Origin: an uncultured bacterium
GTDB taxonomy: Bacteria; Actinomycetota; Acidimicrobiia; Spongiisociales; ZC4RG35
DNA length: 64,000 bases
Direction of reading: 5' to 3'
Assembly: GCA_963753285.1 (NCBI GenBank)
Contig: CAVWBT010000011.1
Location: forward strand, 69,354-133,353
Within the stretch, counting starts at the first letter, position 1; every line of letters starts with the position of its first letter. Positions 15,606 through 41,457 of the stretch are shown here, piece by piece. Below the pieces are notes generated by a model, which did not search any database, had not been told where the DNA came from, and was given only the letters and a program-made list of their open reading frames with translations. Both the position numbers and the translations under genes were made by a program.

Positions 15606-16556
15606 TCACCGAGTGTCGGCGCGGGCGGCGCGCAACACCTCGTCGATCGGTGACGTGGCGAGGTCGCCGAGTTCCTGGACGTAGTCGTAGCCGAACCGGC
15701 CCTTGATGCACAGGTTGCCGTGGGTGACGGAATGGTCGAGCGGTGAGGTGACCTTGACGATCCGGTTGTCCTGGACGTGGAGTTCGAGGTTGCAGCCGAT
15801 GGCGCAGTACGAGCACACGGTGCGGGTCACCGTCTGCTCGTCTTCGCGCCAGATGCCCGCCCGGCGCATCTCGTATTCGGAACGGAACTGCAGCGCACCC
15901 GTCGGGCACACGCCGACGCAGTTGCCGCAGAAGACGCAGGCCGAGTCGGTGAGGGGAGTGTCGAGCTCGGTCGAGATCCTGGCGTCGAAGCCGCGTCCGG
16001 CGACTGCAATGGCAAAGGTGTTCTGAGCCTCCTCACCGCACGCCTGGACGCACTTGTAGCAGAGGATGCAGCTGGCGTAGTCCCGGATGTACAGGGCGTT
16101 GTCCACCTTGACGGGCTGGTCGACGCTCTCGGCGGTCGTGCCGTCGGGCTCTGGGTGGTGGCCGGCGTGACGGTGATCCCTGTCGTCGTGCGGACCGGAC
16201 GGTGGCCCGTAGCGAGACGAGTCGACGCCGTAACGCTCCATCCAAGGAGCCATCTCGCTGTTCGAGAGGTCGGCGGAGGAGTCGAGGAACTCCAGGACCA
16301 TCTTGCGGGAGTGGCGGACCCGTTCGGAGTCGGTGTCGATGACCATCCCGTCTTCGACCTTGCGCGAGCATGACGGGACGAGCGTCCGGGATCCTTCGAC
16401 CTCCACCACACACACCCGACAGGCATTGACCGGCGTGAGCGTCGACACCCAACACAGGGTCGGCTGCTCGCTCCCGATCTCCCGACACGCGTCGAGGATG
16501 GTCGACCCTTCGGCCACGTCGACCCGGGTGCCATCGATGGTCACCGAGACGGTCAT
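15606..16556 (-). CDS. NuoG/HylA-like iron-sulfur subunit: 2Fe-2S ferredoxin, 4Fe-4S clusters and a C-terminal molybdopterin-oxidoreductase Fe4S4 domain. This is the detached N-terminal module of formate dehydrogenase alpha.
   Basis: Cys clusters CxxC...C and CILCYKCVQAC, CVFCGNCVGVCP, CSYCAIGCNL. It ends just after the Fe4S4 domain. ATG at 16556. Confidence 0.8.
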   Translation of the reverse strand: MTVSVTIDGTRVDVAEGSTILDACREIGSEQPTLCWVSTLTPVNACRVCVVEVEGSRTLVPSCSRKVEDGMVIDTDSERVRHSRKMVLEFLDSSADLSNSEMAPWMERYGVDSSRYGPPSGPHDDRDHRHAGHHPEPDGTTAESVDQPVKVDNALYIRDYASCILCYKCVQACGEEAQNTFAIAVAGRGFDARISTELDTPLTDSACVFCGNCVGVCPTGALQFRSEYEMRRAGIWREDEQTVTRTVCSYCAIGCNLELHVQDNRIVKVTSPLDHSVTHGNLCIKGRFGYDYVQELGDLATSPIDEVLRAARADTR

Positions 16557-16563
16557 GCTCGGT

Positions 16564-16598
16564 CCACGTTCCACGTTGCACGTTTCACGTTCCACGTC
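16564..16598. repeat. heptanucleotide tandem repeat, 5 x (N)CACGTT (coding-strand sense GGACGTG/GAACGTG/AAACGTG/CAACGTG/GAACGTG), 8-42 nt upstream of the hylA-like start codon
   Basis: Read directly from ggtCCACGTTcCACGTTgCACGTTtCACGTTcCACGTcc. Confidence 0.8.
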
Positions 16599-16933
16599 CT
16601 CTCGGCAGCTGCGTCGATGGAACCTGCAGCAGGTAGGCGTCTCCGGCTTCGGTGCGTGTGGCCCGGCTCCTGTGCCCGGGAGACCCGGCCGGAGAACGGG
16701 ACTGGTTGGGCCCAACTGTGCGAGGGCGCGCCGGTAGGTGATGTCGGGTGTCGGGGTGGTGCGTTGCGGGCGAGGCAAGCCTCGCCCCTACACCTCGTCG
16801 TCCGCCGTACCGACGACCGACGACCGACGATCGGCAACTTGCGTCGCAGGGGCCGTCCAGGGGTAGGGGCGGCCGCCTGCGGCACCCGCAGCCCGGGCCG
16901 TCCGACCCACCGAACCCGGTCCATCGTCAAGCT

Positions 16934-16964
16934 TCTGTCACGCATCTGTCATCTGTCATCTGTC
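16934..16964. repeat. heptanucleotide tandem repeat TCTGTCA x4 (one interrupted), overlapping the stop codon of the NuoEF-like gene
   Basis: Read directly: tctgtcacgcatctgtcatctgtcatctgtc. Confidence 0.75.
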
Positions 16965-18707
16965 GAGAAGCCCCAGCCTGATCGCCGACTGGATGGCGGT
17001 GGCGGCGGTGTGGCCGAGGCCACAGATCGAGGCGTCCTTCATCGCCCGGTCGATGTCGTCGATCAGGTCGGCTTCGAGCGGTGATCCGCCAGTCAGATTG
17101 CGGGCCAGTGCCTCTTCGAGTCGAACAGTGCCGACCCGGCAGGGGACGCATTGGCCACACGACTCGTCGCGGAAGAAGCGGGCAATCCGCCGGGCGACGG
17201 CCTTCATGTCGGCCGAACTGTCGTAGACGACCACCACGCCGGAGCCCAGGCTGACCCCGGCGGCGCGGCTGTCTTCGAACGTGAGCGGCAGATCCAGCAT
17301 GTCGGGACCAACGAAGCTGCCCGCTGCTCCGCCCAGCAGGATGGCGGTGAGGTCGTCGGGCGGTCCGCCGGCGAAGTCGAGCAGTTCTCGGAGCGTCGTC
17401 CCGAAGTCGACCTCGTACACCCCGGGCCGATCGATCGCTCCGCTGAGACAGAACAGCCTGGTCCCCGTCGAGTCCGGTGTGCCGGTCTCGGCGAATGCCT
17501 CTCCGCCGAGCAGCACGATGTCGAGCACGTTGACCAGGGTTTCGACGTTGTTGACGACGGTGGGTTTGCCGAACAAGCCTGCCTCGGTGGGGAACGGCGG
17601 CTTCTGGCGTGGCTCGCCGCGGAAGCCTTCGATCGAGTTGAAGAGGGCGGTCTCCTCGCCGCAGATGTAGGCGCCCTGCCCCTGGCGGATCTCGATGTCG
17701 AACCGGATGCCCTCGCCGAGGATGTCGTCGCCGAGGAGCCGGGCCTCGATCGCCTGGTCGATGGCGTTCTGGAGCGCGTCGGCGGCATCGGGATACTCGC
17801 CGCGGACGTACAGGTAGCCCTGTTCGGCGCCGATGGCGAAGCCGGCGATCGTCATCGCTTCGATGACCGAGAACGGGTCACCCTCCAAGATCGTGCGGTC
17901 CTTGAAAGTGCCCGGTTCGGATTCGTCGGCGTTGCAGATGAGATATCGGGTCTCCGAGTCCGAGTCGGCTGCGCCCTGCCACTTCACACCGGTCGGGAAG
18001 GCGGCTCCGCCCCGCCCCCGCAGACCCGATGTCTTGACCTCGTCGATGACCAGATCCGGACCGATCTCGAGAGCCCGCTCGAGAGCGGCGTAGCCGCCGT
18101 GGTCGCGATACGAGTCGAGGCGTGCGGGATCGACGGTGCCGATCCGGTCGAGGATGTCGATCGATCGCCTCGGTTTCGCGGGTGAACGTCGTGGCGGTTC
18201 GTCGCCTGCCAGGGCTGCCTCGATCGCCTCGGCCGTGGCCGGAGCGATCACGACATCTGGCCGGCCCGCTCGCTGGACGAACGCCCCCGACCCGTAGTCG
18301 CATTGACCGAGGCAGGGACTCGAAGCCACATCGTCGCGTTCTCCCAGCTGGGCCAAGACGGCCTCGCCGCCGCTCGCGCGGCAGGCCGAGTCGTCACAAA
18401 CGTGTGCCATCCGCTGCGGCCGTGGGTCGACAGACAGCAGCGCATAGAAGGTGGCAACCGAGTAGACCTCGGCAGGTGGCACCGCCAGCCGGCGGCTGAT
18501 CTCGTCGATGGCACCTGGGGAGATCCATCCGATCTCGCCCTGGACTGCCGCGAGGGCGGGGAGGAGCAGGTGGCGGAGCGCGCGCGCCCGGTGACCACCG
18601 GCGACTGCCCGACCCGAGCTGATCTCGATTTCGGCCTCGGGCACGGCCGTGCGGACGGCGCGTTGCTCCGCTTCGGTGGCATCCGCGCCGATCAGCCTGA
18701 GATCCAC
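16956..18707 (-). CDS. NuoE-NuoF fusion protein (NAD(H)-binding flavoprotein with an N-terminal thioredoxin-like 2Fe-2S domain; FdsB/HylB-HylC-like)
   Basis: NuoE Cys motifs (CDDSACRASG...CLGQCDYG), then the NuoF FMN/NADH site (GLRGRGGAAFPTG, ICNADESEPGTFKDR) and 4Fe-4S site (ESCGQCVPCR). Confidence 0.85.
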   Translation of the reverse strand: MDLRLIGADATEAEQRAVRTAVPEAEIEISSGRAVAGGHRARALRHLLLPALAAVQGEIGWISPGAIDEISRRLAVPPAEVYSVATFYALLSVDPRPQRMAHVCDDSACRASGGEAVLAQLGERDDVASSPCLGQCDYGSGAFVQRAGRPDVVIAPATAEAIEAALAGDEPPRRSPAKPRRSIDILDRIGTVDPARLDSYRDHGGYAALERALEIGPDLVIDEVKTSGLRGRGGAAFPTGVKWQGAADSDSETRYLICNADESEPGTFKDRTILEGDPFSVIEAMTIAGFAIGAEQGYLYVRGEYPDAADALQNAIDQAIEARLLGDDILGEGIRFDIEIRQGQGAYICGEETALFNSIEGFRGEPRQKPPFPTEAGLFGKPTVVNNVETLVNVLDIVLLGGEAFAETGTPDSTGTRLFCLSGAIDRPGVYEVDFGTTLRELLDFAGGPPDDLTAILLGGAAGSFVGPDMLDLPLTFEDSRAAGVSLGSGVVVVYDSSADMKAVARRIARFFRDESCGQCVPCRVGTVRLEEALARNLTGGSPLEADLIDDIDRAMKDASICGLGHTAATAIQSAIRLGLLDR

Positions 18708-18974
18708 TCAGCACCACCCCCGGACGAGATCTTCGGGGTATTCAGTGTTTGTCCCCCCTTCGGGGGGACGGACCGCCCGCTGTCCTAGCCAGGGGGACGG
18801 CGAACCCGCGAGTATGGACTGAGTGATCGGGCGGTCAGGGGGGCATTCAACCTGGGTGACGGTGAGACGCAACGCCCCCTCGGCTTGCTGGCGCAAGCCT
18901 GTTCCCCCGGAGGGGGAACAGACAATCCGCCGCTTGCATGGGGTCGGGGTGAGCGAAGGCATTCCGGTCATGGG
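18708..18974 (-). other. structured intergenic region with several perfect GC hairpins (candidate sRNA/terminator/REP cluster)
   Basis: Hairpins GTCCCCCC-TTCG-GGGGGAC (18761-18779), GCTTGC-TGGC-GCAAGC (18884-18899) and CTGTTCCCCC-GGA-GGGGGAACAG (18899-18921). No ORF is present. Confidence 0.25.
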
Positions 18975-20881
18975 TCAGATCTTCTCCACTCGGATGGCGG
19001 TCGCTTTGAAGTCGGCGGTTCCCGACTTCTGGTCCCAGGCATCGATGGTCAGGACGTTCACGTCGACGTCGTCGGGGAAGTGGATCGGCATGAACATGAG
19101 GCCCGGGCGGAGCGCGTCGCTGATCAGCACGGGGACTTCGATCGAACCGCGGCGCGATGTGACCCGCACCGTGTCTCCGTCGGCGATCTCGAGTTCGTCG
19201 GCGTCGCGCCGGCAGAGCTCGAGGGCGCCACCCGGGCGGCGTGGCGAGGAGTAGCCGCCGGATTGGACCCCGGTGTTGTACGAGTCGAGGTGGCGCCCGG
19301 TCGTGAGCCGGTATGGATAATCGGGTGCGAGTGCATCGGCGGGCAGGACGTGCTCGACCGGGGTGAACTGGGCGGACCGGCCGACGTCATCGGTCCAGAG
19401 CCTCGAGTGGAGGAACTGCTCGCCCGGGATGGGACTCGTCGTAGCACGGCCACTGGATCCCGCCGAGCTGCTCGAGGCGGTCGTAGCGCATTCCCGCATG
19501 AGGCGGGGACAGGCTTCTGCACTCGTCCCAGATCTCTTCGGGTCGTGGCATGCCCCAGTCGAATCCGAGCCGCTGGGCCATCAGGTGGAGGATGTCGGTG
19601 TCGGTCTTGGCCTCACCGGGCGGTTCGAGTGCTTTGCGGACGAGTTGCACGCGACGCTCCGAGGACGTGACCGTCCCATCGGACTCGCACCAGTCGGCGG
19701 CGGCCGGGAAGACGACGTCGGCCAGCTCGGCGGTCTTGGTGAGGAACATGTCCTGGACGACCAGGAATTCGAGTTCTCTCGAGCGCCCGCCGGGTCACGG
19801 CGACATCCGCCTCGGATTGGGCCGGGTTCTCGCCGATGACGTACAGCGCCCGTAGCTTGCCCGCTTCCATGGCCTCGAACATCTGAGTGAGATGCCATCC
19901 GCGCTTGGGGTTCAGCTCGGCGCCGTAGGCGGCCTCGAACTTGGCGAGATGTTCGGGGTTCTCGAGGTCCTGGAAACCCGGGAGCTTGTTCGGGAGTGCG
20001 CCCATGTCGCCGCCACCCTGGACGTTGTTCTGGCCGCGGATCGGAACGAGCCCGGATCCGTAGCGACCGACGTGACCGGTCAGCAGTGCGAGGTTGATCA
20101 ATGCGAGGACGTTGTCGGTTCCGTTGTGGTGTTCGGTGATGCCGAGTGTCCAGCAGATCTGCGCCGTCGGGGCTTTGGCGTAGTTGATCGCCATCTCTTC
20201 GATCAACTCAGCCGGTACGCCGGTCTCTCGGCTGGTGCGTTCGAGGGTCCATTCCTCGACGCTCGCCGCGTAGGACTCGAAGTCGCTGGTGGCCCGCTCG
20301 ATGAACTCGGTGTTGGCGAGTCCCTGTTCGATGATGACCCGAGCCATGCCGTTTGCGAGGGCGATGTCGGTCCCGACGTCGATGCCGAGCCAGACGTCGG
20401 CCCACTGGGCGGTCTCAGAGCGGCGCGGGTCGACGCAGTACATCCGGGCGCCGTTGTGGATGCCCTTCAGTACGTGGTGGAAGAAGATCGGATGGGCGGC
20501 GCGGGCGTTCGAGCCCCACATGATGATGAGATCGGTGTTCTCGATCTCCTCATAGGAGCTGGTTCCACCGCCTGCGCCGAGGACGGCCACCAGACCGGCG
20601 ACCGAAGGAGCGTGTCAAGTGCGGTTGCAGCTGTCGATGTTGTTGCTGCCCATGGTGACCCGAATGAACTTCTGTGCCAGATAGTTCAACTCGTTGGTCG
20701 CCTTCGAGCAGCTGAACATGCCGACGGCCGTGCCGCCGTGCGTGTCGCGCACCTCCGACAGGCCTGCGGCTGCCCGGTCGAGGGCTTCATCCCATGATGC
20801 GGCCCGTAGAACCCCGTCTTCGCGAACGAGTGGCGTGGTCAGTCGAGTCCGTGGTCGGCGTGAACGTGTCGTCGTCATCAT
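18975..20881 (-). pseudogene. fdhA: formate dehydrogenase catalytic (molybdopterin) subunit, selenocysteine-containing. The reading frame is interrupted by two single-base indels near 19774-19780 and 19432-19437, so this is either a pseudogene or assembly error.
   Basis: Four ORF fragments (20615..20929, 19613..20590, 19387..19749, 18975..19499) together span a complete FdhF-like protein. Fragments 1 and 2 are in the same frame across the TGA at 20615-20617, where the NNIDSCNRT-U-HAPSVAGL motif matches the FDH-H ARVUHGPSVAGL selenocysteine site. ALE(K)LEFLVVQD and DESHPG/EQFLHSRLW continue in shifted frames. The start is the ATG at 20881 (MMTTTRSRR...) with a GGAGAGGAGG RBS. Confidence 0.75.
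20584..20604 (-). promoter_or_regulatory. bacterial SECIS-like hairpin 10 nt downstream of the in-frame UGA (CGGUCGCC-GGUCU-GGUGGCCG)
   Basis: 8-bp stem with G-U wobbles and an apical GGUC(U) loop. Its position and shape are analogous to the E. coli fdhF SECIS. Confidence 0.55.
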
Positions 20882-21064
20882 CTCACCTCCTCTCCGGCCA
20901 TTGGCTCTTGGCTGTCGGCTCTTGGCCATTGTGGTACATCGGTGAGCCGTCGGGGGGCGACCGCCGGGATTCCCACATGGTGGAACTGAGGGCCTGGCTT
21001 GCCTGGCGGCTCGCCTTGGCCCGTCGTCGGTAGTCAGTTCTCGGTCATCGGTCTAGCGAGCGGG

Positions 21065-21397
21065 TCAGTCGCACACGATGACGCGACCCTCATCGAGTCT
21101 GAACTTGGCGACCACTGATGCGCTCGTGAGCTCGTCGGGGAGATCCGAAGCGATGTAGCTATCGGGCGCTGCCCATATCGATCGGGTGCTCGAGGGGAGC
21201 AGCTCCATGACAGCGTCCCAATCGGGGTTGAAGTCGATGAGCACGCCTGCGCCTCCTTCGTCGCCGCACGCTTCTTCATAGGAGATCGCATCCGTCTCCC
21301 GGACCTGGTCCGGCGTGACCGAAATCGGACCCTGCGAACACCCTGCGGTCACGGCTAGGCAAACCGCGATGAGACCTGAGCGCAGCAGATTGGCCAT
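21065..21397 (-). CDS. small lipoprotein, hypothetical
   Basis: Signal peptide plus lipobox (LIAVCLAVTAGCSQ). Confidence 0.5.
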   Translation of the reverse strand: MANLLRSGLIAVCLAVTAGCSQGPISVTPDQVRETDAISYEEACGDEGGAGVLIDFNPDWDAVMELLPSSTRSIWAAPDSYIASDLPDELTSASVVAKFRLDEGRVIVCD

Positions 21398-21498
21398 CCC
21401 CACCAGGTCGCCGCTTCCACCTCCCGAGCTGCGACGCGACCGATAACCGACAACTGATGACCGAAGACGCCGATGCGAAGCGAGGCCAGAAGCGAGGC

Positions 21499-23256
21499 TC
21501 AGAACAGGCCCACCACGTCGCCGTCGTCGTTTATGTCGACCTTGAGGTAGGCCGGGGTGGCGCCGAGTCCGGGCATCGTCCGCATCTCCCCGAGCAGCGG
21601 ATAGATGAACCCGGCGCCGACGCTGGCGCGAACCTCTCGGACGGGGACCGTGTAGCCGGTCGGGGCGCCCTTCATTGCGGGGTCGTGGCTGATCGACAGG
21701 TGGGTCTTCGCCATGCAGATCGGCAGATACCCGAACCCGGCCTCCTCGAACTCGCGGATCTGTTGGCTGGCGAGTGGGGAGTACTCGATCTCACCCGCCC
21801 CGTAGATGTCGCGGCAGATGATGTTGATCTTGTCGGTGATCGACATGTTGAGGGGATACAGGTACGAGAACTCGTTCGGCTCCTCACACGCTTGGACCAC
21901 CGCTTCGGCCAGTGCCACAGCTCCTTCGCCGCCCTTCGCCCAGTGTTCGGCGAGCACCGCGTCGAACGCTCCGGCCGCGAGCGCCTTCTCCTTGATGAGG
22001 TTGATCTCGGCCCACGAGTCGGTGGGGAACGAGTTGATCGCCACTACCACCGGCACGCCGAATCGCTTGGCGTTCTTGATGTGTGCCTCGAGGTTCGACA
22101 TGCCGGCGTTCAACAACGCGAGGTTCTCCTCGGTGTACACCTTGTCGAGCGGGCGGCCGGCGACCACCTTCGGGCCACCCCCGTGGGTCTTGAGGGCCCG
22201 GACGGTTGCGACGAGCACCACACAGTCGGGAGTGAGGCCCGATGTCCGGCACTTGATGTCCATGAACTTCTCCATGCCCATGTCGGCTCCGAACCCCGAC
22301 TCGGTGATCACGTAGTCGCCGAGGTGGAGGGCGACCCGGTCGGCCAGGATCGAGCTGTTGCCATGTGCGATGTTGGCGAATGGCCCGGCATGCACCATGG
22401 CCGCCTGGCCTTCGAGCGTCTGCATGATCGTTGGGTGCAGCGTGTCCTTCATCAGCACCGCGACGGCTCCTGCCACGCCGAGGTCTTCGAGTGTCAGCGG
22501 CTTCCCTTCCTTCGACGTCCCGAACACGACGCGACCGACCCGCTCTCTGAGGTTGCGCAGCGCCGAGGCGTAGCTGTCACCGTCGACCAGCGCCAGGATG
22601 GCCATGAGCTCGGACGCGACGGTGATGTCGAACCCGGTCTCGCGCGGCCGGCCGTCGGCCTTGCCGCCCAGTCCGACGATGACGTTTCGGAGGGTGCGGT
22701 CGTTGATGTCCACGACCCGGTTCCACTGGAGCTTGAACGTGTCGATCGACAGCCTGGTGAGACCGAGGTCGGCGAGTTCGGCGTCGTGGAGGCGTGACTC
22801 GTGGTACCAGCGTGCGTCGATGGCGGCGGCGACCAGATTGTGGGCAGCGGTTATGGCGTGGATGTCGCCGGTGAGGTGGAGGTTGAACTCGTCCATCGGG
22901 ATCACCTGGCTGTAGCCACCACCGGCGGCGCCGCCTTTGATGCCGAACGTCGGTCCCATCGATGGCTGGCGGATGGCGGCGATGGCGTTCTTGCCGATCT
23001 TGCCGAGACCCTGGGTGAGCCCGATCGTGGTCGTCGTCTTGCCCTCGCCCAGCGGTGTCGGCGTGATGGCGGTCACGTCGATGTACTTGCCTTTGGGGTT
23101 GGCGCCGATCCGTTTGAGAGCGTCGAGATGCACCTTGGCCTTGGTGTGGCCGTAGGGGATGACCTCCTCGGGCAGCAGACCGACGCGTTCGGTGAGTTCG
23201 GAGATGGGGATGACGTCGGCCGCTCTGGCGATGTCGATGTCGCTGGGGACTGTCAC
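21499..23256 (-). CDS. fhs: formate--tetrahydrofolate ligase
   Basis: Full-length FTHFS-like translation (PTPLGEGKTTTTIGL P-loop). Start chosen at the GTG at 23256 (VTVPSDIDIARAA...) with a GAGGA RBS. The first in-frame ATG would add about 30 atypical residues. Confidence 0.85.
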   Translation of the reverse strand: MTVPSDIDIARAADVIPISELTERVGLLPEEVIPYGHTKAKVHLDALKRIGANPKGKYIDVTAITPTPLGEGKTTTTIGLTQGLGKIGKNAIAAIRQPSMGPTFGIKGGAAGGGYSQVIPMDEFNLHLTGDIHAITAAHNLVAAAIDARWYHESRLHDAELADLGLTRLSIDTFKLQWNRVVDINDRTLRNVIVGLGGKADGRPRETGFDITVASELMAILALVDGDSYASALRNLRERVGRVVFGTSKEGKPLTLEDLGVAGAVAVLMKDTLHPTIMQTLEGQAAMVHAGPFANIAHGNSSILADRVALHLGDYVITESGFGADMGMEKFMDIKCRTSGLTPDCVVLVATVRALKTHGGGPKVVAGRPLDKVYTEENLALLNAGMSNLEAHIKNAKRFGVPVVVAINSFPTDSWAEINLIKEKALAAGAFDAVLAEHWAKGGEGAVALAEAVVQACEEPNEFSYLYPLNMSITDKINIICRDIYGAGEIEYSPLASQQIREFEEAGFGYLPICMAKTHLSISHDPAMKGAPTGYTVPVREVRASVGAGFIYPLLGEMRTMPGLGATPAYLKVDINDDGDVVGLF

Positions 23257-23444
23257 GGGGATCCTCGATCGAGACTGGCGGCGACGATAGCGCCCGGTGT
23301 TCCGGATGGCGGAACGAATCCACATGTCGGAACGCAGATTGTGGGCACTCTCCGTGAGATATTGACCACGGACAGTGACTAGTCCCACCACGCACAGTGA
23401 GATTGGTGCTGGGTAGCGGTGCCCATCAAGCTGATAGTGATGGC

Positions 23445-23993
23445 ATGAACCTCAGGCACCCATCCCGCGACTCAGAACGAGGAGCATCGCTCGTCGAGTT
23501 CTCGCTCGTGTTGCCGATCCTGCTCGTGATCGTCTTCGGCATCCTCGAGATGGGGATGGCGTTCGGCACCAAGATCACCGTGGGCTCGGCTGCCCAAGAG
23601 GGAGCCAGGGTCGCCTCGTTCAAGGGCAACGACCTCGACGCCGACTGCGTGGCGCTCGAATCGACGATCGCCGAACTCGGCAACGAGGTGGACCAGGTGA
23701 CCATGATCAGGATCTACCGGGTGGACAGCGCCGGGAACCGCGAGCCGCTCAATACCAACACCTACACATACGGTGGCGTCGGCGACATCAACGACTGCAC
23801 CAAGTGGAACGGGACCGTGCTCTGGCCGTCGACCGATCGCAAGGTGACGGTCGGGACCACACCGCTCGACGTCCTCGGGGTGGAGGTCGCCAGCACCCAC
23901 CAGTGGGTCACCCAGTTCCCACCATTCACCGGAGTCATCGACGTCGCCGAGTCGACGATCGTCCGGCTCGAACCGGAGGCCTACGACACATGA
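23445..23993 (+). CDS. TadE-like (Flp pilus assembly) protein
   Basis: N-terminal ERGASLVEFSLVLPILLVIVFGILE TadE/TadG signature. Confidence 0.7.
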   Translation: MNLRHPSRDSERGASLVEFSLVLPILLVIVFGILEMGMAFGTKITVGSAAQEGARVASFKGNDLDADCVALESTIAELGNEVDQVTMIRIYRVDSAGNREPLNTNTYTYGGVGDINDCTKWNGTVLWPSTDRKVTVGTTPLDVLGVEVASTHQWVTQFPPFTGVIDVAESTIVRLEPEAYDT

Positions 23994-24049
23994 GAGTCAT
24001 CCGGCGAATCAGAACCGCAACACGACCAGAAGGAAGGAGGCACCAAACG

Positions 24050-25522
24050 ATGAAACAGAGCAACACCAACACCACGGAACGAGGAGCGGCCCTCCCGTTC
24101 GTATCGATCGCGCTCGTGCTGCTGCTCGGTGCCGCCGCTTTCGCCGTCGACCTCGGATGGGTGTATCTCAACGGCAACCGGGTCCAGAAGGCCGCCGACG
24201 CCGCGGCCTTGGCAGGAGTCGTCCACATCACCAACTCGATGGCCGACGCCCAGACCGATGCCGAACTCGCCGCCAGCCTCAACGGGTTCCCGGTCGGCGG
24301 TGGGACCGTGATGGCGCTGGCTCCCACGACCGATAGCGACCTCGAGGTGGAACTCACCGCCGAGGTCGAGACCTTCTTCCTCAACGTGTTCGGCTTCGAC
24401 GACATCAACGTGTCGAAGACGTCCACCGCCCGCTTCGTCAGTGCCGTCAAGATCGGCAACCCCGGCCAATGCTTCGGGGTCGGTGCGGCGGCCGTCAGTG
24501 CCGCAAACAGCCCGTGCGCCAACACCTCGAACATCTGGGCCGCCATCTCTGGCAAGGACGCCGCCAAGCTCAACGGCGATCCGTACTCCACCAAGTGCAT
24601 CCAGTACTCGCCCGGCTGCATGTCGACCAACCCGAACCCCGAGGAGCACAACAACGGCTACAACTACGGCATCGAGGTGGTCTCGGGCACCAACAACCTG
24701 ATGATCCACCTCTACGACGCCGGGTTCTACCAGCGGCCCAACTTCAGCACCGAGACCGGTGACGGGATCGCCTACGGCGACAAGAACAACAACGGCCCGA
24801 TCACCAACTTCACGCTCTATAAGCCCGACTCGACGCCGGCCAACCCCAACGACAACACCGTCGTCCAGCCGGGTTGCTCGCTGACGCTCAACCCTGGCAA
24901 CCAGGAGGCGACCTACAAGAACAAGTGGGTGGTCTACTGCACGGTCTCAGGGCCGGTCGATCCGGGCGTGTGGGTGTTGAACGTCGAGCCGCAGGGCAAC
25001 TTCGGTGGATCCAACCAGTACGCCGTTGCAGCCACGGCCGCGTCCGGTCCGCAGCCCAGCCTCTTCGGGATCGACAACATCTCGATCTTCACGAACCAGG
25101 TCTCGTCGATCGCCAACCTGAGCCTGGCCGAGATCGAAGAGATCCACGCCGGCAAGAAGCTGATCCTCCGGTTCTTCGACGCCGGTGAAGACAACTCCTC
25201 CGACGCCTACATGGCGGTGAAGATGCCAGACGGCTCGACCGCCGACTGCACCTGGGTGGCCACCGATGAGGGCACCGTGACCTACTCGCAGGCGAGCAGC
25301 GCACCCTGCAAGATCGACACCACCAAGCCGAAGTCCGGCGGGGGCTACGAGTCGAAGTTCAACGGCCAGTGGATCACCGCCACCATCCAGATCCCCGACA
25401 CCTACACCTGCGGCAGCGACTGCTGGTGGGAGATGGAGATCAAGCTCAACCAGCCACACGACCGCACCACCTGGGAGGTCGAAGTCATCGGCAACCCGGT
25501 CCGACTCGTGGAGAACAACTGA
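24050..25522 (+). CDS. large TadG-like/pilus-associated secreted protein (Tad_N N-terminal domain, Asn/Gly/Thr-rich, multiple Cys pairs)
   Basis: ERGAALPFVSIALVLLLGAAAFAVDLGWVYLNGNRVQKAADAAALAG matches the TadG N-terminal domain. ATG at 24050 with a GGAAGGAGG RBS. Its GC content is lower than the flanking genes. Confidence 0.65.
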   Translation: MKQSNTNTTERGAALPFVSIALVLLLGAAAFAVDLGWVYLNGNRVQKAADAAALAGVVHITNSMADAQTDAELAASLNGFPVGGGTVMALAPTTDSDLEVELTAEVETFFLNVFGFDDINVSKTSTARFVSAVKIGNPGQCFGVGAAAVSAANSPCANTSNIWAAISGKDAAKLNGDPYSTKCIQYSPGCMSTNPNPEEHNNGYNYGIEVVSGTNNLMIHLYDAGFYQRPNFSTETGDGIAYGDKNNNGPITNFTLYKPDSTPANPNDNTVVQPGCSLTLNPGNQEATYKNKWVVYCTVSGPVDPGVWVLNVEPQGNFGGSNQYAVAATAASGPQPSLFGIDNISIFTNQVSSIANLSLAEIEEIHAGKKLILRFFDAGEDNSSDAYMAVKMPDGSTADCTWVATDEGTVTYSQASSAPCKIDTTKPKSGGGYESKFNGQWITATIQIPDTYTCGSDCWWEMEIKLNQPHDRTTWEVEVIGNPVRLVENN

Positions 25523-26061
25523 TGGCACGAGGGAAGCATGACAGTGGGGACGAGCGAGGGCTGGCAACGGTCGAGCTCGGGCTCATGCTCGGATTCCTGA
25601 TGCTGCTGGCCCTCGGCGCCTTCGAATACGGCATGCTGTTCTCCAAGTCACAGGACGTCGCATCCGCCTCCCGTGAGGGAGCGCGGACTGCAGCCTCGGC
25701 CGGTAGCGAGACCACCGCCGACTGTCTCATCCTCGAAGCGGCCTCGGGAACCCTGTTCGGAACAACCGGCGGCACCGTTTCGGAGATCGTGATCGAGAAG
25801 GGCAATGCCGGCAACAATCCACCCCGCCAGCGGTATCGCCCGGCGGTCGCCACCGACGACCCGCTGCTGCTCGCCTGCGGCTCGTGGTATCCCATCCAGA
25901 TCAGCTGGCCGCCGGTGAACCGTGACGACACCGGCGTGACTCGCGACTGGGTGACGGTCGAAGTCACCTACGAACACGAGTGGATCACCGACTTCCTGTT
26001 CTTCACGGGCACCGAGACGTTCTCGGAGGCGACGACCATGCACATGCCGCCCAACAACTGA
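25522..26061 (+). CDS. TadE-like (Flp pilus assembly) protein, second copy
   Basis: DERGLATVELGLMLGFLMLLALGAFEYG. Its start overlaps the upstream stop (TGATG). Confidence 0.7.
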   Translation: MARGKHDSGDERGLATVELGLMLGFLMLLALGAFEYGMLFSKSQDVASASREGARTAASAGSETTADCLILEAASGTLFGTTGGTVSEIVIEKGNAGNNPPRQRYRPAVATDDPLLLACGSWYPIQISWPPVNRDDTGVTRDWVTVEVTYEHEWITDFLFFTGTETFSEATTMHMPPNN

Positions 26062-26062
26062 G

Positions 26063-26458
26063 TCAGAATCGAGCCGGTCTCGGCCAGTAGCGGACGAGGA
26101 TGCGGAAGCTCCCGTTGATCGGGATCGCACCGAACACTCGAGAATCGGCCCTGGTCGAGCGGCGATTGTCGGACAGCACGAACACCTCGCCGACCGGGAT
26201 CTCGAACGAGCCTGACTCGATCTCCTCTCGAAACGGGTCGTCGTATGCCACGCCGTTCACCGTCCCCGAATCGAGGTCGATGGTCCCGGCCGTCGCAACC
26301 ACCCGCTTGATCAGCCAGAAACCTGGGCGGTCCGGATGCTCGAACGCAACGATGTCCTGCGGCGTGACCCGATCTACCCGATGTCCGACGACGTAGTCGC
26401 CGGACCTGAGCGTGGGGAGCATCGAGTCACCATCGACGACGAATCTGCGGAATCTCAT
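26063..26458 (-). CDS. sodX: S26-family peptidase, nickel-SOD maturation protease SodX-like
   Basis: Signal-peptidase catalytic motifs GDSMLPTL ... VLSDNRRSTRADSRVFGAIP. It is divergent from sodN. Start set at the ATG at 26458 (the alternative is 26506). Confidence 0.65.
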   Translation of the reverse strand: MRFRRFVVDGDSMLPTLRSGDYVVGHRVDRVTPQDIVAFEHPDRPGFWLIKRVVATAGTIDLDSGTVNGVAYDDPFREEIESGSFEIPVGEVFVLSDNRRSTRADSRVFGAIPINGSFRILVRYWPRPARF

Positions 26459-26526
26459 CACGCTCCGGTACGGGTGGCTCCGAGGCGGGAGTATGGTCGG
26501 ATACACGCAATCGATGGAGGTATCTC

Positions 26527-26943
26527 ATGGGTCTGTTCCGGCCCACGACCGTAGCCCACGCACACTGTGATCTGTACTGCGGCGTCTACGACCCCGCACA
26601 GGCGAAGATCGAAGCGATGTCCGTCTGGAAGTCGGCTCAGAAGTATCACGACTCCGACGACGAGGTGTTCAAGGCCCGCGCCATCAACATCAAGGAGCAG
26701 CAGGCGGAGTTGGTCAAGCACCACCTCTCGGTGCTGTGGACCGACTTCTTCACCGCCGACCATCGGTCCGAGTTCTCCAACCTCGACGACCTGTTCTGGC
26801 GGGCGATCCACCAGGCCGGCGTCGCCAAGAAGTCCGTCGACCCGGCCGACGGCGAGAAGTTGGTGCAGCTGATCGACGAGATCGCCGAGATCTTCTGGCA
26901 GACCGACAAGTCCAAGGGAATGGGCGTCTACCCGCCCTCCTGA
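26527..26943 (+). CDS. sodN: nickel superoxide dismutase precursor
   Basis: A 12-aa leader is followed by the Ni-hook HCDLYCGVYDP and then conserved NiSOD helices. GGAGG RBS. Confidence 0.9.
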   Translation: MGLFRPTTVAHAHCDLYCGVYDPAQAKIEAMSVWKSAQKYHDSDDEVFKARAINIKEQQAELVKHHLSVLWTDFFTADHRSEFSNLDDLFWRAIHQAGVAKKSVDPADGEKLVQLIDEIAEIFWQTDKSKGMGVYPPS

Positions 26944-27025
26944 TCTCGGAGGATTCAACCACAACGATGGCCGCCCTGTCCGGGGCGGCCATCGTTGTTT
27001 GTCTCCCCTTCGGGACGCCAAGCGT

Positions 27026-27170
27026 GTAGGGGCGGGGCTCGCCCCGCCCGCGACCCGGGCCGCGATGTCAGACGATCGGGACCCCAGGCGCGAGGCGTGG
27101 CGCAACGGGCCTGTTGGTGATCGACGGGTGTGACGGGGTGCGCGGCGGGCGACGTGAACGTCGCCCCTAC
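27026..27170. repeat. imperfect inverted-repeat element with GTAGGGGCG ... CGCCCCTAC termini, plus an internal GGGCGGGG-CTCG-CCCCGCCC hairpin
   Basis: Member of the dispersed GTAGGGGCG palindrome family (see 16777-16801, 16863-16891, 38191-38216, 53791-53816). It sits in a convergent intergenic region. Confidence 0.5.
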
Positions 27171-27196
27171 CCGCCAGGCCGGATGACGCGCGGTAG

Positions 27197-27436
27197 CTAG
27201 CGAGCGCGATCGGGGAGTCTGCTCGTGATGCTCGAAACGGCCCGGTCCGCCCAGGCGAAGCGGCGGGCGAGCACGGTCATGCCCGCAGCGATCGGGATGA
27301 CGCCGGGCAGGACCGGCAGGAAGATCCCGGCGATCCCGACCAGCACCAGGGTGGTTCCGACGGTGGTGATGCCCGCTGTGGAGAGCCATCGACGTGTGCG
27401 CATGCCTCCACGATGCCACAGATCAGGACTTGTCAT
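27197..27436 (-). CDS. small PGPGW-type transmembrane protein
   Basis: Two TM helices with a central LPVLPGVIP motif. Confidence 0.45.
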   Translation of the reverse strand: MTSPDLWHRGGMRTRRWLSTAGITTVGTTLVLVGIAGIFLPVLPGVIPIAAGMTVLARRFAWADRAVSSITSRLPDRAR

Positions 27437-27441
27437 GTCGG

Positions 27442-28920
27442 TCAGACGGCATCGACGTTGTACGACGCGGTGGACTTCGCGATCAGTCTCATGCCGATCT
27501 CGTCGGCCAGATCTCCCGGAAGATCAATGATTCGAATCTGCGCACTGCCTCCGGCGGTGTCGATGGACACCGTTGCCAACCCGAGCCGACGCTGAAACGG
27601 GCTCCTCCGGATTGCGACGGTCTGGACCTTTGGCAGCGGGACACTCCACCAACGACGGGTCAACACGCCTTCCCTGGTGACCACGTGGCCTTCGGAGACC
27701 CGGTAGCCCAGTGCCCGGTATCGGGCCCGGGCGTACCACAGCGCACCGATCACCGCCAGCAACGGAGCTCCCAACCAGGCGACCGGACCGGAGTCGACGG
27801 TGAGAAACACGACGGCCGCCACGGGAAGTGATAGCACCAGCAGCGCTCGGATCGAGCCGCGCCGGATGGTCAATCGTGACACCGATTGCAGGGACACGAT
27901 GTCGGCCTCTGCGGGGCCGAGCACACGGGCGGTGAGCGCCAGTGCCGGACCGTTCGGAGCGATCGGCGTCAGCATGCCCGACCCTCCGCCTTCACCTCCC
28001 GGCGAGCCCGCGGTCTCTGCGATCACCGACGAATAGCCGAACACCCGGCGGAGCAGTGGTTGTTCGATCCTCACGGCCTGAATGCGGTTCAGTGGCGACG
28101 AGGCCTGGAACCGTGAGAGCAGCCCGTGCGATCTGCGGAGCTCGTCATCGGTCAACACGAGGCGGAACTCGAAGAAGCGGAGCACCGTGGTCGCGATGGA
28201 GGCGATCCAGCCGACGACGAGGGCGAGCAGAACGATCACAGCGCCCGCGACGATTGCGCCGGACCCGGACGAGAACGGCTCGGCGATCGCCGGGAACCAC
28301 CGCTCGATGATCTCGTAGGTGTCGGCGGTGGCGTCGTCGAACAGCTGGAAGGCGGTCCCGACGAGCACGGCGAGCGCGCCGATGCGGTTCGAGGTGGCGC
28401 CGCCGATGATCAGATCCATGAAGGGCGTCGAGGTCAGCAGCTCTTCCACCTTCTCGATCTGCTGTTCTCCCAGGTCACCGTGACGACGCTCTTCGAGCCA
28501 CCGTTCGAGCGCGTCGGCCTCGACGGCGGAGAGATAGCGCAGCGACAGCTCGGACCCCGATCCGCCGGCGGTCTCCGCTTTGAGCTCGTACAGCCCGAGA
28601 AAACGCGACGCCAGCGTCTGGTTGCGATCGATGCGCTGGATCCGATCGACCGGGATCGTGCGATCGTCGATCTGAAGCAGGCCGGAACGCACCCGCAAAC
28701 GGTCGCCCTCCACCCACCACCGCTGGCGCAGCCACGACACGAGGCGGGAGGCGGACAAGACGGCGATCAGGCCGCCGGCGCTGATCGCGGATTGTGCGAT
28801 GTCTCCGGCGTTGAATGCGATCACGACCACGAGCGGCAGGATGAACTGCCTGAGCAGATCGAAGGCAGTGAGGAGCGGCGTCCACCCGCTCGTGCGACGC
28901 GGCTCACCGAGGTCGTTCAA
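27442..28920 (-). CDS. YdbT-like membrane protein with three bacterial PH (bPH_2) domains
   Basis: N-terminal TM pair followed by repeated bPH_2-like segments. There is no ATG; the start is inferred at the TTG at 28920, overlapping the ydbS stop (TTGA) and preceded by GGAG. Confidence 0.75.
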   Translation of the reverse strand: MNDLGEPRRTSGWTPLLTAFDLLRQFILPLVVVIAFNAGDIAQSAISAGGLIAVLSASRLVSWLRQRWWVEGDRLRVRSGLLQIDDRTIPVDRIQRIDRNQTLASRFLGLYELKAETAGGSGSELSLRYLSAVEADALERWLEERRHGDLGEQQIEKVEELLTSTPFMDLIIGGATSNRIGALAVLVGTAFQLFDDATADTYEIIERWFPAIAEPFSSGSGAIVAGAVIVLLALVVGWIASIATTVLRFFEFRLVLTDDELRRSHGLLSRFQASSPLNRIQAVRIEQPLLRRVFGYSSVIAETAGSPGGEGGGSGMLTPIAPNGPALALTARVLGPAEADIVSLQSVSRLTIRRGSIRALLVLSLPVAAVVFLTVDSGPVAWLGAPLLAVIGALWYARARYRALGYRVSEGHVVTREGVLTRRWWSVPLPKVQTVAIRRSPFQRRLGLATVSIDTAGGSAQIRIIDLPGDLADEIGMRLIAKSTASYNVDAV

Positions 28921-29549
28921 CGACCGGCTCCGCGGGCGATCAGGGCCTGTCTCAACTCCTCGGCCCGCTCGGCGGTCAGACCGGGGATGGATGCGTCGGC
29001 TTCTCGTGTCCCCGCCGTGTAGATCGAGAGCTGGCGCAGGTTGAACAGTCGATCGACCGGACCGCTCGAGAGATCGACGTGCTGAATCCTCACCCGAGGG
29101 ATGATCCTGGTCAGCTTGAACACCACCCCGCGATCGATGACCAGCTCGGTCTCGTCGAGTTCCCACGACCAGTGCCGGTAGCGGGTCACCGTCCGCCAGA
29201 CACTGAAGGCGAGCAACCCGACGATCGTCAAGGACGTGGCGAGGCCGGTCCTCGTCGGGAACACGAAGATGTCCAGTTGGAGCACCACGAGGGTCACCAA
29301 CAGCGACGGAATCAGATAGCCGACGAACCACACCCATCGCACCGACGTCGAGAGCATCTGCCGCTCGAACGTCACTGGTGCGGGGTCGACGACCTCGGTG
29401 TCCGGATCCGGCTCCGGCAACGGATCGACCTCGTCGGCCCAGGCGGACCAGAGCGGATCCTGCGTCACCGCTTCGCCGGCGCGTGTCTCGTGTTCGGGGC
29501 GTGCGTCCTCCACCTCGGGGATCTCACTGCCGTCGTGGTCTGGCGTCAT
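28917..29549 (-). CDS. YdbS-like bPH_2 domain membrane protein with an acidic N-terminal extension
   Basis: Two TM helices plus a PH domain. Its ATG overlaps the metG stop (ATGA). Confidence 0.7.
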   Translation of the reverse strand: MTPDHDGSEIPEVEDARPEHETRAGEAVTQDPLWSAWADEVDPLPEPDPDTEVVDPAPVTFERQMLSTSVRWVWFVGYLIPSLLVTLVVLQLDIFVFPTRTGLATSLTIVGLLAFSVWRTVTRYRHWSWELDETELVIDRGVVFKLTRIIPRVRIQHVDLSSGPVDRLFNLRQLSIYTAGTREADASIPGLTAERAEELRQALIARGAGR

Positions 29550-31195
29550 TCGTCGAGGGCGTCCGCTTCCAGCTTCGTGAACAGCGGGCGGACTTCACCC
29601 AGGCTGCTCCCGCCCAGTAGCTCGGGTCGCTCCCACGCCGACACGGGGTCGAGTCCGAGGATCTGACCGAGTCGATCCGACGTGAACGGCAGATACGGGG
29701 TCAGCGCCACGCGCAACCCGGAGATCGCCTGGAGTGCGGTCCACAGCACCGTGGCGCCGCGGTCGCGATCGGTCTTGAGCAGCCTCCACGGCTCCTCGGC
29801 GTTCAGATAGACGTTGACAGACTGGGCACCGTCCATCGCCCTGCGGAGACCGGTGCGCAGTTCCACCTTCCCGATCGCTTCCGCCACTTCGGCGAGGGTG
29901 CGGTCGGTGTCGTCGAGGACCTGTCGGTCCCCGTCGGTCAGTTCAGCGGGCTCCGGCACCGTCGACTCGAAGTTCTTTGCGGTGATCGACAGCACCCGAT
30001 TGACCAGGTTGCCCCACGTTGCCACGAGCTCTTCGTTGATGCGGGCGATCATCTGGTCGTCGGAGAGGTCGGTGTCGTTCTGTTCGGGCAGGATCGCCGC
30101 GATCGCATAGCGCAGCGCATCGGGTTCGAGCCGGTCGGCGTACCAGCCGATCGACCGTCCGACACCGCGCGATGCGGATGCCTTGTCGCCCTTGAACGTG
30201 ATGTACTGGTTCGCCGGCACGTCGGTCGGGAGGTTGAGCCCGCCGTACCCCATCAGCTGGCAGGGCCAGATGACTGCGTGGAACACGACGTTGTCTTTGC
30301 CGATGAAGTAGTAGCTCTCGGCGTCGGGGTCCTCCCACCACGCCTTCCAGGCATCTGGGTCGCCCGAGTTCTTCGCCCACTCGACCGAGGCACTGAGGTA
30401 TCCGATCACGGCGTCGAACCAGACGTAGATCCGTTTGCCGTCGCCGATCGTGTCGTACGGACTCGGGATCGGGACACCCCAGTCGAGGTCCCGGGTGATT
30501 GCCCGATCCTGGAGGCCGCCTTCGGTGAAGCCGATCGCCATGTTTTGGACGTGCTTGCGCCATCCCTGGCGGCTCTTCAGCCAATCGAGGAGGCGGTCCT
30601 GGAACTTCGAGAGCAGCAGGAAGTAGTGCTCGGTCGGGCGCATCTCGGGGGTGGCGCCGGTGAGGCGGCTCCGCGGGTCGATCAGGTCGATGGGGTCGAG
30701 CTGGCGGCCGCAGTTGTCGCACTGGTCGCCTCGCGCTGCGTCGTACTCGCAGTGAGGGCAGGTGCCCTCGACATACCGATCGGGAAGGAACCGCTCCGCC
30801 TCGGGGTCGTACAACTGGTCGCTGGAGCGGGCCTCGATGTACCCGCCTTCGGCGAGGCGGGAGAACACGTCCTGGGTGACCTGGTGATGGTTCTCGGTCC
30901 CCGTCGAGGTGTACAGGTCCCAGGCGATCCCGACCTTGTCCCACGCCTCGAGGAATTCGCTGTGGTAGCGGTCGACGATCACCTGCGGCTCGACGCCCTC
31001 CTGTTCTGCGCGGACCGTGATCGGCGTGCCGTGGACGTCGGAGCCAGACACCATGAGAACGTTGTCCCCGGCCAGTCGATGGAACCGGGCGAAGATGTCT
31101 GCGGGGAGATAGGCCCCGCCGAGATGCCCGAGGTGGCGCGGACCGGACGCGTAGGGCCATGCGACGGCGACGAGGATGTTTCGGGGTTCTGGCAT
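29546..31195 (-). CDS. metG: methionine--tRNA ligase
   Basis: HLGH (PRHLGHLGG) and KMSKS-like (KGDKASASRG) motifs. The zinc knuckle is CPHCEYD...CDNCG. ATG at 31195. Confidence 0.9.
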   Translation of the reverse strand: MPEPRNILVAVAWPYASGPRHLGHLGGAYLPADIFARFHRLAGDNVLMVSGSDVHGTPITVRAEQEGVEPQVIVDRYHSEFLEAWDKVGIAWDLYTSTGTENHHQVTQDVFSRLAEGGYIEARSSDQLYDPEAERFLPDRYVEGTCPHCEYDAARGDQCDNCGRQLDPIDLIDPRSRLTGATPEMRPTEHYFLLLSKFQDRLLDWLKSRQGWRKHVQNMAIGFTEGGLQDRAITRDLDWGVPIPSPYDTIGDGKRIYVWFDAVIGYLSASVEWAKNSGDPDAWKAWWEDPDAESYYFIGKDNVVFHAVIWPCQLMGYGGLNLPTDVPANQYITFKGDKASASRGVGRSIGWYADRLEPDALRYAIAAILPEQNDTDLSDDQMIARINEELVATWGNLVNRVLSITAKNFESTVPEPAELTDGDRQVLDDTDRTLAEVAEAIGKVELRTGLRRAMDGAQSVNVYLNAEEPWRLLKTDRDRGATVLWTALQAISGLRVALTPYLPFTSDRLGQILGLDPVSAWERPELLGGSSLGEVRPLFTKLEADALDE

Positions 31196-31260
31196 CCCGC
31201 GAGGGTACCGGTCTGCCCGATCTGTACCCACACGGATTTGCCCGGAGCGTCCACTCTCCG

Positions 31261-32196: not shown

Positions 32197-32400
32197 CACG
32201 GCAGTCTCGACACCCGGGCTGTCAACGGCAACTCGGCGCTCGGGTGATTCCGGCGTGATCCGATCGCCTGTTCGCGGGTTCGCCTTGCCTGCACATCCCG
32301 TGTCGTCGACGGACCATGTGCGATCGATGCTTGCCGTTCGAGGACCCGTCCTCGGACCGTCGACCGTTACGCTCGTCGTCGAACGCACCCGAGGAGCAAC

Positions 32401-32881: not shown

Positions 32882-32883
32882 TG

Positions 32884-32938
32884 CGAACCCAGGGTTCCTG
32901 ACGACACCTGGTGTCGATCTCGGCGCAAGGTTCGGACG
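32884..32938. repeat. GC-rich palindromic REP-like element, copy C
   Basis: GCGAACCCAGGGTTCCTGACGACACCTGGTGTCGATCTCGGCGCAAGGTTCGG, related to 7207-7262. Confidence 0.55.
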
Positions 32939-33050
32939 TCAATGTGCGCTCACGGTGGGCGCTGCAGTCGGGTCCTCCTCCTCTGGACGAGTCGACCCCA
33001 TTCAGATAGTTGCGGTTGTGGAGTCGTCGCTAGCTGCTCAGAGGTGACTC

Positions 33051-38782: not shown

Positions 38783-38784
38783 GA

Positions 38785-40823: not shown

Positions 40824-40826
40824 CGG

Positions 40827-41114: not shown

Positions 41115-41127
41115 CGGTGCCCTCCGC

Positions 41128-41418: not shown

Positions 41419-41457
41419 TCCGGTTCCTCCTCAGGTACCTCTCGTCGTCTGTTCCGA

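Follow-up and report, generated by a model that had tools for sequence, protein, structure and literature searches.

Introduction

The formate dehydrogenase (FDH) catalytic subunit FdhA is the most widespread bacterial selenoprotein, recorded in 822 organisms (PMC5029168). It occurs in 89% of selenocysteine (Sec) users, and its family is the one in which the replacement of Sec by Cys is most frequent (PMC1794560). Sec-containing FDHs have already been documented in Actinobacteria, where the mycobacterial enzyme (fdoG/fdhA type) possesses a selenocysteine insertion sequence (SECIS), is split at its UGA by gene callers and also exists as pseudogene copies that retain the SECIS (PMC13449736). In this study, we analysed 64,000 nucleotides of contig CAVWBT010000011.1 (hereafter the window), from an uncultured Acidimicrobiia-like bacterium, and we focused on an FDH gene of its minus strand that harbours an in-frame TGA. 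On comparative grounds, we propose with high confidence that this TGA encodes Sec in the catalytic subunit of a three-subunit Mo/W FDH that is cytoplasmic and linked to NAD(P), and that the hairpin that follows it is a SECIS element.

In Escherichia coli, the SECIS of fdhF presents a GGUC loop closed by an A-U pair and a bulged U (U17) in its upper stem, a structure reportedly examined by Huttenhofer in 1996, Liu in 1998 and Fourmy in 2002. The elongation factor SelB contacts the G and U of the GGUC apical motif. More than 5,400 E. coli genomes have this element (TGACACGGCCCATCGGTTGCAGGTCTGCACCAATCGGTCGGT) within fdhF at 100% identity.

A TGA codon opposite Sec140 of E. coli FDH-H

The TGA lies at 20617..20615 of the minus strand, inside a molybdopterin FDH gene. 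A first-pass annotation, made from the letters alone, had noted that the open reading frames (ORFs) 20929..20615 and 20590..19613 are in one frame (339 nt apart) with this codon as sole interruption, and we confirmed that nothing else breaks the open frame between them. The minus strand of 20800..20400 includes the codons AAC AAC ATC GAC AGC TGC AAC CGC ACT TGA CAC GCT CCT TCG GTC GCC GGT CTG GTG GCC GTC, and the peptide across the TGA reads ...GSNNIDSCNRT-[TGA]-HAPSVAGL. By phmmer, the codon aligns with X140, the Sec residue of E. coli FdhF (FDH-H, PDB 1aa6), and a His comes next; the position assigned to it at first sight was thus correct. The arginine motif RGQNNVQG is also kept ('lvpiRGQNNVQG' as compared with 'vnpvRGQNNVQG' in 1aa6). 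The extent initially given to the gene holds only in part: the frame is indeed shared across the TGA, but 19613 is not the gene end, since the FDH frame goes on to 18975 in two other frames.

Once corrected for these changes of frame (see below), the protein matches the Pfam domains Molybdopterin (PF00384, 2.8e-70) and Molydop_binding (PF01568, 6.1e-27). It reaches 673.7 bits against TIGR01591 (Fdh-alpha), for a cut-off of 666.25, with only model positions 51-672 being covered. Among solved structures, it is best matched by the FdhF of the hydrogen-dependent CO2 reductase (HDCR) of T. kivui (7qv7_S, E 2e-146), by an archaeal FdhA (7bkb_D) and by E. coli FDH-H (E 8e-134).

TGA is also the stop codon of 39 of the 43 confidently identified genes of the window. 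Therefore, the recoding at 20617 has to be specific to this site.

Conservation and covariation of the downstream hairpin

A hairpin, CGGUCGCC-GGUCU-GGUGGCCG, starts 10-11 nt after the TGA, inside the coding sequence. Its stem of 8 bp, two of them G.U, is part of the local minimum free energy (MFE) fold of the RNA (-20.2 kcal/mol). The stem-loop with a GGUC apical motif that the first-pass annotation had placed 10 nt downstream of the TGA was recovered at 20604..20584 both by MFE folding and by RNAalifold. The bulged U that it had added to this motif was not: the helix is continuous over 6-8 bp in the window and in the consensus, and the U after GGUC sits in a 5-nt loop.

To compare this region among relatives, we scanned one genome per GTDB species (80 loci, 64-89% protein identity) and the JGI metagenome contigs (80 further loci). 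Together, these loci span 63-90% protein identity, the best match in either scan being at 89-90%. The genome loci come mostly from metagenome-assembled genomes (MAGs) of Acidimicrobiia, and also from Gaiellales, Thermoleophilia, Dehalococcoidia, Acidobacteriota and others. A TGA is present at the homologous codon in 160/160 loci, within ...DSCNRT-TGA-HAPSV[A/T/V]GL. The Gly-Leu pair of the loop is encoded by GGT-CTG in every one of them, and GGUCU is invariant over 161 sequences. GGT represents 16% of the Gly codons in the operon, yet the loop Gly is always GGT in these TGA-type loci; at three Gly codons a few positions downstream, all four third bases are used freely.

The stem itself varies by lineage, with the arms GTCGCC/GGCGGC, GTCACC/GGTGAC, GTCGTC/GGCGAC, GTCGTC/GACGAC and GTGGTC/GGCCAC. 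Over 72 distinct sequences, the six inner pairs are 99-100% paired, and three of them show changes on both sides. One of these two-sided changes is purely synonymous, Val GTC to GTG being paired with Ala GCG to GCC. Moreover, amino-acid changes in the two arms are coupled as pairing requires (Ala..Ala to Thr..Val through G-C to A-U). The covariation score of the helix is 0.288, as compared with 0.195 +/- 0.009 for shuffled alignments, and none of 500 shuffles reaches the observed value. RNAalifold, run independently, found the same 6-bp helix and GGUCU loop; the lower stem that it adds is made of invariant columns and shows no covariation. The two outermost pairs of the 8-bp stem of the window are not conserved.

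Observations that weigh against a selenocysteine codon

Several observations have to be set against this interpretation. First, the fold of the window sequence taken singly is not significant (z = -1.1), 33 of 200 shuffles of this sequence with 66% GC folding as well. As the hairpin alone is no better than chance, its significance must come from comparison with other sequences. Second, the relatives compared here are phylogenetically related, and 160/160 does not represent 160 independent events. Third, the 3' arm slid by +3 columns still pairs at 78.8%, owing to a GGC-rich repeat, and an alternative register is possible; the observed register outscores the slid one in covariation (0.288 vs 0.161). 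Fourth, no Rfam family matches the window at gathering thresholds. In a covariance search of the Infernal type, as had been recommended at first pass, the best relaxed match, RF01989 (SECIS_3), spans the full model (1-59) in the correct register, starting at the UGA, but its 17 bits (E 0.34) are far below the gathering score of 63. RF01989 is also weak in the relatives L021 and L081 (21-22 bits).

Furthermore, no selA, selB, selD or tRNA-Sec was found within the window: ARAGORN predicted 0 tRNA genes, a motif scan for SelA, SelB and SelD was empty, and none of the roughly 60 window ORFs searched against Pfam and NCBIfam corresponds to a sel gene. Such genes do accompany the orthologous FDH in several relatives. 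One locus (L055) carries a tRNA-Sec (ARAGORN; Rfam RF01852, 72 bits), selA (TIGR00474, 469 bits) and selB (TIGR00475, 288 bits) at about 2.6 kb from FDH, and two others (L067, from Gaiellales, and L114) have selA/selB within about 8 kb. We infer that the sel genes lie elsewhere in the window's own genome. We also came across selB-like matches in two Acidimicrobiia loci (L013 and L017), which by size and position we took as tuf and fusA and not as selB (the matches being in a 396-aa ORF beside a 700-aa ORF), without family search.

Finally, the deposited frame is broken twice in a gene of 1.95 kb, for about 0.3 breaks expected at an apparent rate of about 3 per 19 kb.

Two frameshifts that differ between near-identical assemblies

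As deposited, the FDH frame of the window is thus interrupted at more places than the Sec codon. Three-frame translation of the minus strand distributes it over the segments 20929..19778, 19776..19423 and 19421..18975, with one extra base per junction. Compared with the related loci L001 and L002 (84% nucleotide identity), the window gene has exactly two extra bases, at about 19778 and 19425, and the closest protein (P0001, 92%) is uninterrupted across both sites. The frame-corrected protein has 0 departures at 150 invariant or near-invariant columns of an 81-sequence alignment, all three segments included, and thus shows no sign of decay.

Through an exact match to the nickel superoxide dismutase (SodN) protein of the window, we identified a second assembly, contig_1645 (325 kb) of ENA assembly ERZ25039603, hereafter L168. 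It is 99.57% identical to window positions 16528..35706 over 19 kb, with 68 mismatches and 17 indel columns. L168 keeps the TGA and the hairpin, in which a T-to-C change at 20589 turns a G.U pair into G-C. It has neither of the two insertions of the window and carries a private +1 of its own at about 19787. Other private indels of L168 break NuoEF, the flavoprotein gene of the operon, which is intact in the window. Conversely, a bPH_2 gene (27442-29549, minus strand) is broken in the window only, at about 29068, where it is read as overlapping frames of 693 and 225 codons; L168 has one extra base there and a single open frame of 717 codons. That frame-breaking indels differ between near-identical assemblies is the signature of consensus errors and not of mutation. 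Most likely, the two +1 frameshifts of the FDH gene are assembly errors and the gene is intact in vivo.

The mismatches with L168 are unevenly distributed, 57 of the 68 falling in 16.5-20.8 kb, that is in the FDH operon (4.3 of the 19 kb), with dense clusters at 16558-16687 and 18982-19032. This clustering suggests strain heterogeneity or recombination at the FDH operon, and strain heterogeneity over the operon would favour consensus errors.

Because two breaks exceed the 0.3 expected, a very recent pseudogene is possible. According to this explanation, which we consider unlikely, the TGA and SECIS are authentic and ancestral, and this copy is a recently inactivated selenoprotein gene with real frameshifts, possibly together with a loss of the Sec trait in the lineage. 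FDH pseudogenes that keep their SECIS are indeed known in M. ulcerans (PMC13449736). The concentration of two breaks in the FDH gene, when most other window ORFs have full-length domain matches, the missing sel genes in the window and the frame break that L168 also has in its FDH gene, at a different site, would all fit such a scenario; but the window insertions are absent from L168 and the L168 insertion is absent from the window, and the 17 indel columns in 19 kb, including the breaks of NuoEF in L168 only and of bPH_2 in the window only, follow the pattern of consensus errors. Moreover, no conserved residue is substituted in the three frame segments, and the remaining operon is intact. We had ourselves considered the frameshifts as a sign of decay, a view that was weakened by the intact conserved columns and largely dropped after the L168 indels proved to be assembly-specific. 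Altogether, frameshifts in MAGs built from long reads should not be called pseudogenes without a second assembly.

A 6-bp palindrome (CTCGAG or CCCGGG) results from each insertion. A methylation-motif artefact or engineering was considered and dropped, since the window holds 81 and 42 such sites and 11% of random insertions make a palindrome.

Cys-type orthologues as a natural control

In the protein database, the Sec-type members of this clade appear only as unnamed fragments (514-544 residues, 70-92% identity) that begin past the UGA. The Cys-type members are full-length (633-655 residues, 62-66% identity), carry Cys in the motif DSCNRTCHAPSVAGL, and are found in Streptomyces, Saccharopolyspora, Thermopolyspora, Nocardiopsis, Kutzneria, Actinomadura and Nonomuraea. 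We fetched the DNA of seven Cys-type orthologues as a comparison set. At the Sec position, all seven have TGC or TGT. Their Gly-Leu codons are GGG, GGA or GGC followed by CTG, TTG or CTC, GGT being used in 0/7, and 3-6 of 7 stem positions are able to pair, compared with 6-7 of 7 in every TGA-type gene. Thus, where Sec is not used, the peptide stays the same and the RNA features are missing, which speaks against the view of the hairpin as a by-product of constraint on the protein.

This by-product explanation, in which the hairpin only reflects the coding of SV(A/T/V)GL(A/V)(A/T) and Sec insertion, if any, is directed by another sequence, appears very improbable to us. It can invoke the invariant Gly-Leu encoded by the loop, the presence of the same peptide in E. 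coli FdhF and in the Cys-type proteins, and the lower stem of RNAalifold, with its invariant columns devoid of covariation. It has no place for the Cys-type genes, which spell this peptide with GGG, GGA or GGC and no stem, for the synonymous third positions that covary (GTC/GCG with GTG/GCC), or for amino-acid changes in two arms that are coupled as base pairing needs.

It is hardly credible that the TGA arose by nonsense mutation in a Cys codon (TGC/TGT), or by a sequencing error, and that the hairpin is a coincidence. TGC/TGT orthologues do exist in Streptomyces, Saccharopolyspora, Thermopolyspora and others, and the single-sequence fold is not significant, but 160/160 closer relatives have the TGA, as does an independent assembly of this population, and the hairpin and GGT codon are kept only in TGA-type genes. 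A genome-wide reassignment of UGA to a standard amino acid, with neither SECIS nor Sec, has a negligible probability, with 39 of the 43 genes ending in TGA and nothing specific in its favour.

Judging from these comparisons, the TGA is a predicted ancestral Sec codon accompanied by an fdhF-like SECIS, and no lesion. The selenoprotein FDH with in-frame UGA and fdhF-like SECIS that had been proposed at first pass is supported by the TGA of all 160 loci, the invariant GGUCU, the covariation of the stem, L168 and the contrast with the Cys-type genes.

By analogy with E. coli fdhF, SelB bound to GTP and Sec-tRNA(Sec) would bind the GGUCU loop and the upper stem while the UGA occupies the ribosomal A site about 11 nt upstream, and Sec would be inserted instead of termination. 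In the enzyme, Sec would ligate the Mo/W atom, beside a conserved His and a conserved Arg (His141 and Arg333 of E. coli, the latter in RGQNNVQG). The Fe-S subunit (16778..15606) would contribute in trans the [4Fe-4S] domain by which electrons leave; they would then reach the FMN of the NuoE/NuoF-like flavoprotein (18707..16956) and finally NAD(P)+. The reverse direction of catalysis would give CO2 reduction.

Organization of the operon

The features of the locus are collected in Table 1.

Table 1. Features of the FDH locus, in window coordinates
Feature	Coordinates	Strand	Evidence or remarks
Predicted UGA selenocysteine codon	20615..20617	-	alignment with FdhF X140; 160/160 related loci; L168
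Candidate SECIS, upper hairpin	20584..20604	-	core of 6 bp, 20602..20597 with 20591..20586; loop GGUCU 20596..20592; MFE and RNAalifold
Candidate SECIS, extended region	20562..20620	-	Rfam SECIS_3 alignment, below threshold
FDH catalytic (Mo/W-bisPGD) subunit	18975..20929	-	650 codons after removing two inserted bases; Pfam, TIGR01591, phmmer
Frameshift 1, one extra base, CTCGAG[A/G]GAAC	19777..19778	-	absent from L001, L002, L081, P0001, L168
Frameshift 2, extra base in C/G run, CATCCCGGGCGAG	19422..19426	-	absent from L001, L002, L168
Spacer from FDH stop to NuoEF start, 267 nt	18708..18974	-	absent in L001, L002
Fused NuoE-like/NuoF-like diaphorase (2Fe-2S, FMN/NAD(H) site, 4Fe-4S)	16956..18707	-	Pfam 2Fe-2S_thioredx, Complex1_51K, SLBB, NADH_4Fe-4S
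Fe-S subunit (Fer2_4, 2x 4Fe-4S, C-terminal Molybdop_Fe4S4)	15606..16778	-	Pfam, NCBIfam; probable start Met at 16556
Small lipoprotein-like ORF	21065..21403	-	between the formate--tetrahydrofolate ligase and FDH catalytic genes
Formate--tetrahydrofolate ligase	21499..23391	-	Pfam FTHFS, 836 bits; probable start GTG at 23256

The catalytic subunit has no Pfam match to PF04879, the N-terminal [4Fe-4S] domain. Indeed, its TIGR01591 match begins at position 51, and its alignments to solved chains begin at about residue 57-62 (about 48-62 for E. coli FdhF). In relatives such as L006, the match to formate--tetrahydrofolate ligase (FTHFS) ends less than 100 nt before the FDH match, a spacing that leaves no room for an N-terminal Fe4S4 domain. 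The Molybdop_Fe4S4 domain of the Fe-S subunit corresponds to TIGR01591 positions 1-53, exactly the part that the catalytic subunit is without; the relatives align to this subunit from residue 73-77 or so to about 386.

Essentially every related locus of sufficient length has the order catalytic, NuoEF, Fe-S, as do cultured actinomycetes in their Cys-type operons, so that a split alpha subunit is normal for this clade. We dropped a rearrangement or pseudogene origin of the missing domain, since almost all 80 genome loci and the Cys-type actinomycetes share the permuted order. FTHFS lies upstream on the same strand in 28/80 genome loci, a linkage that suggests a one-carbon (C1) module of formate and formyl-tetrahydrofolate.

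Our literature searches returned no published description of the split FDH architecture and nothing specific on Sec in Acidimicrobiia. We tentatively suggest, at somewhat less than even chances, that the Sec enzyme may be an NAD(P)-linked cytoplasmic FDH with an architecture not yet characterised biochemically, in which the proximal [4Fe-4S] domain has moved to the C-terminus of a HoxU/NuoG-like subunit, with the order catalytic, NuoEF, Fe-S and, in Acidimicrobiia, a genetic coupling to formate--tetrahydrofolate ligase. The Sec form of this architecture would occur widely among uncultured Actinomycetota, Chloroflexota and Acidobacteriota from soil and marine habitats, but gene calling would systematically reduce it to truncated ORFs without a name. 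Because the Cys-type genes are common in databases and routinely annotated, any novelty of the split architecture would be biochemical or structural rather than genomic.

In L001 and L002, only 1 nt separates the FDH stop from the GTG that comes next. The spacer that the window has at this place holds two G/C-rich hairpins, CTGTTCCCCC-TCC-GGGGGAACAG and GTCCCCCC-GAA-GGGGGGAC; it has no second copy in the window or in the fetched loci, and no Rfam match. Another locus (L057) has a 1.3-kb insertion between FDH and NuoEF, in which ARAGORN called a 99-nt 'tRNA-Ala(tgc)' (12211-12309), probably a false positive as Rfam reports no tRNA at its gathering score.

Surrounding sequence

Beyond the FTHFS gene, Tad/Flp pilus genes (23804-26061) separate it from a region (26063-26943) in which the SodN gene adjoins that of its S26-type maturation peptidase. 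At 27026-27173, a GC-rich element of about 150 nt folds into an extended imperfect hairpin (about -88 kcal/mol). L081 has two copies in tandem (123-267 and 290-435) just upstream of its FDH gene, with 71% similarity to this element, which may be a repeat resembling miniature inverted-repeat transposable elements (MITE) or repetitive extragenic palindromes (REP). Further away, a probable bacterial microcompartment locus (about 38486-43560, minus strand) encodes an EutN/CcmL vertex protein, an aldehyde dehydrogenase (partial profile coverage), a DeoC-family aldolase and RpiB. Gene calls are ambiguous in the adjoining region, 35.7-39.4 kb; near 35.7-37.9 kb, identity to L168 falls to 89-94%, with many indels.

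Significance

The gene described here is an ordinary, well-known kind of selenoprotein gene in an uncultured Acidimicrobiia-like bacterium. As FdhA is already the most widespread bacterial selenoprotein and Sec-FDHs have been described in Actinobacteria, what the gene contributes is a further lineage rather than a principle. The conserved TGA and SECIS imply that these uncultured lineages decode Sec. The practical value of the finding lies in annotation: the Sec-type members of the clade are present in databases only as unnamed fragments that follow the UGA, and surveys of the selenoproteome and of C1 metabolism in MAGs of Acidimicrobiia and Gaiellales will therefore under-count them.

Comparison with known systems

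The window protein belongs to the same family (TIGR01591) as E. coli FdhF, with a predicted Sec at the homologous residue followed by His, and with RGQNNVQG kept. At the nucleic acid level, the two genes share the UGA followed by CAC, GGUCUG at an identical offset (+21) and an upper hairpin about 11 nt after the UGA. They differ in the details of this hairpin, the GGUCU loop of the window being closed by C-G on a stem without bulge. The window protein is also without the N-terminal Fe4S4 domain of FdhF, and its partners are NuoEF-like and NuoG-like proteins, whereas the partner of FdhF is the hydrogenase-3 complex.

Like the gene of the window, the mycobacterial Sec-FDH is a selenoprotein gene of a high-GC member of the Actinomycetota, but its product is an enzyme of about 1064 aa of the FDH-O/N type, a different FDH subfamily, and selC-selA-selB are mapped in mycobacterial genomes (PMC13449736), with none of these genes in the 64 kb examined here.

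The Cys-type FDHs of actinomycetes, annotated as 'NAD-dependent formate dehydrogenase catalytic subunit / molybdopterin oxidoreductase family protein', are 62-66% identical. They resemble the window protein in length, in the missing Fe4S4 domain and in the three-gene operon, and both share the motif DSCNRT-x-HAPSVAGL. They differ by their Cys (TGC/TGT), without SECIS hairpin or GGT codon, where the window has a predicted Sec. FdhD is downstream in both Cys-type operons examined, whereas none was seen adjoining the window operon.

Finally, the window operon encodes the same cofactor complement as FdsGBA(D) of Rhodobacter capsulatus and Cupriavidus necator and Fdh1AB of Methylobacterium extorquens (6tga, 7vw6, 7e5z), namely a NuoE/NuoF-like diaphorase, NuoG-like Fe-S domains, an Fe4S4 domain and a bisPGD domain, and its catalytic part aligns to this group at E values of about 1e-122 (phmmer). 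A fusion of NuoE and NuoF is also found in the beta subunit of M. extorquens. However, their alpha subunits are single chains of about 960-990 residues with an active-site Cys, whereas the alpha subunit of the window is split after the Fe4S4 domain, would carry Sec in its active site, and is encoded in a permuted gene order, with the catalytic gene first, then NuoEF and the Fe-S subunit.

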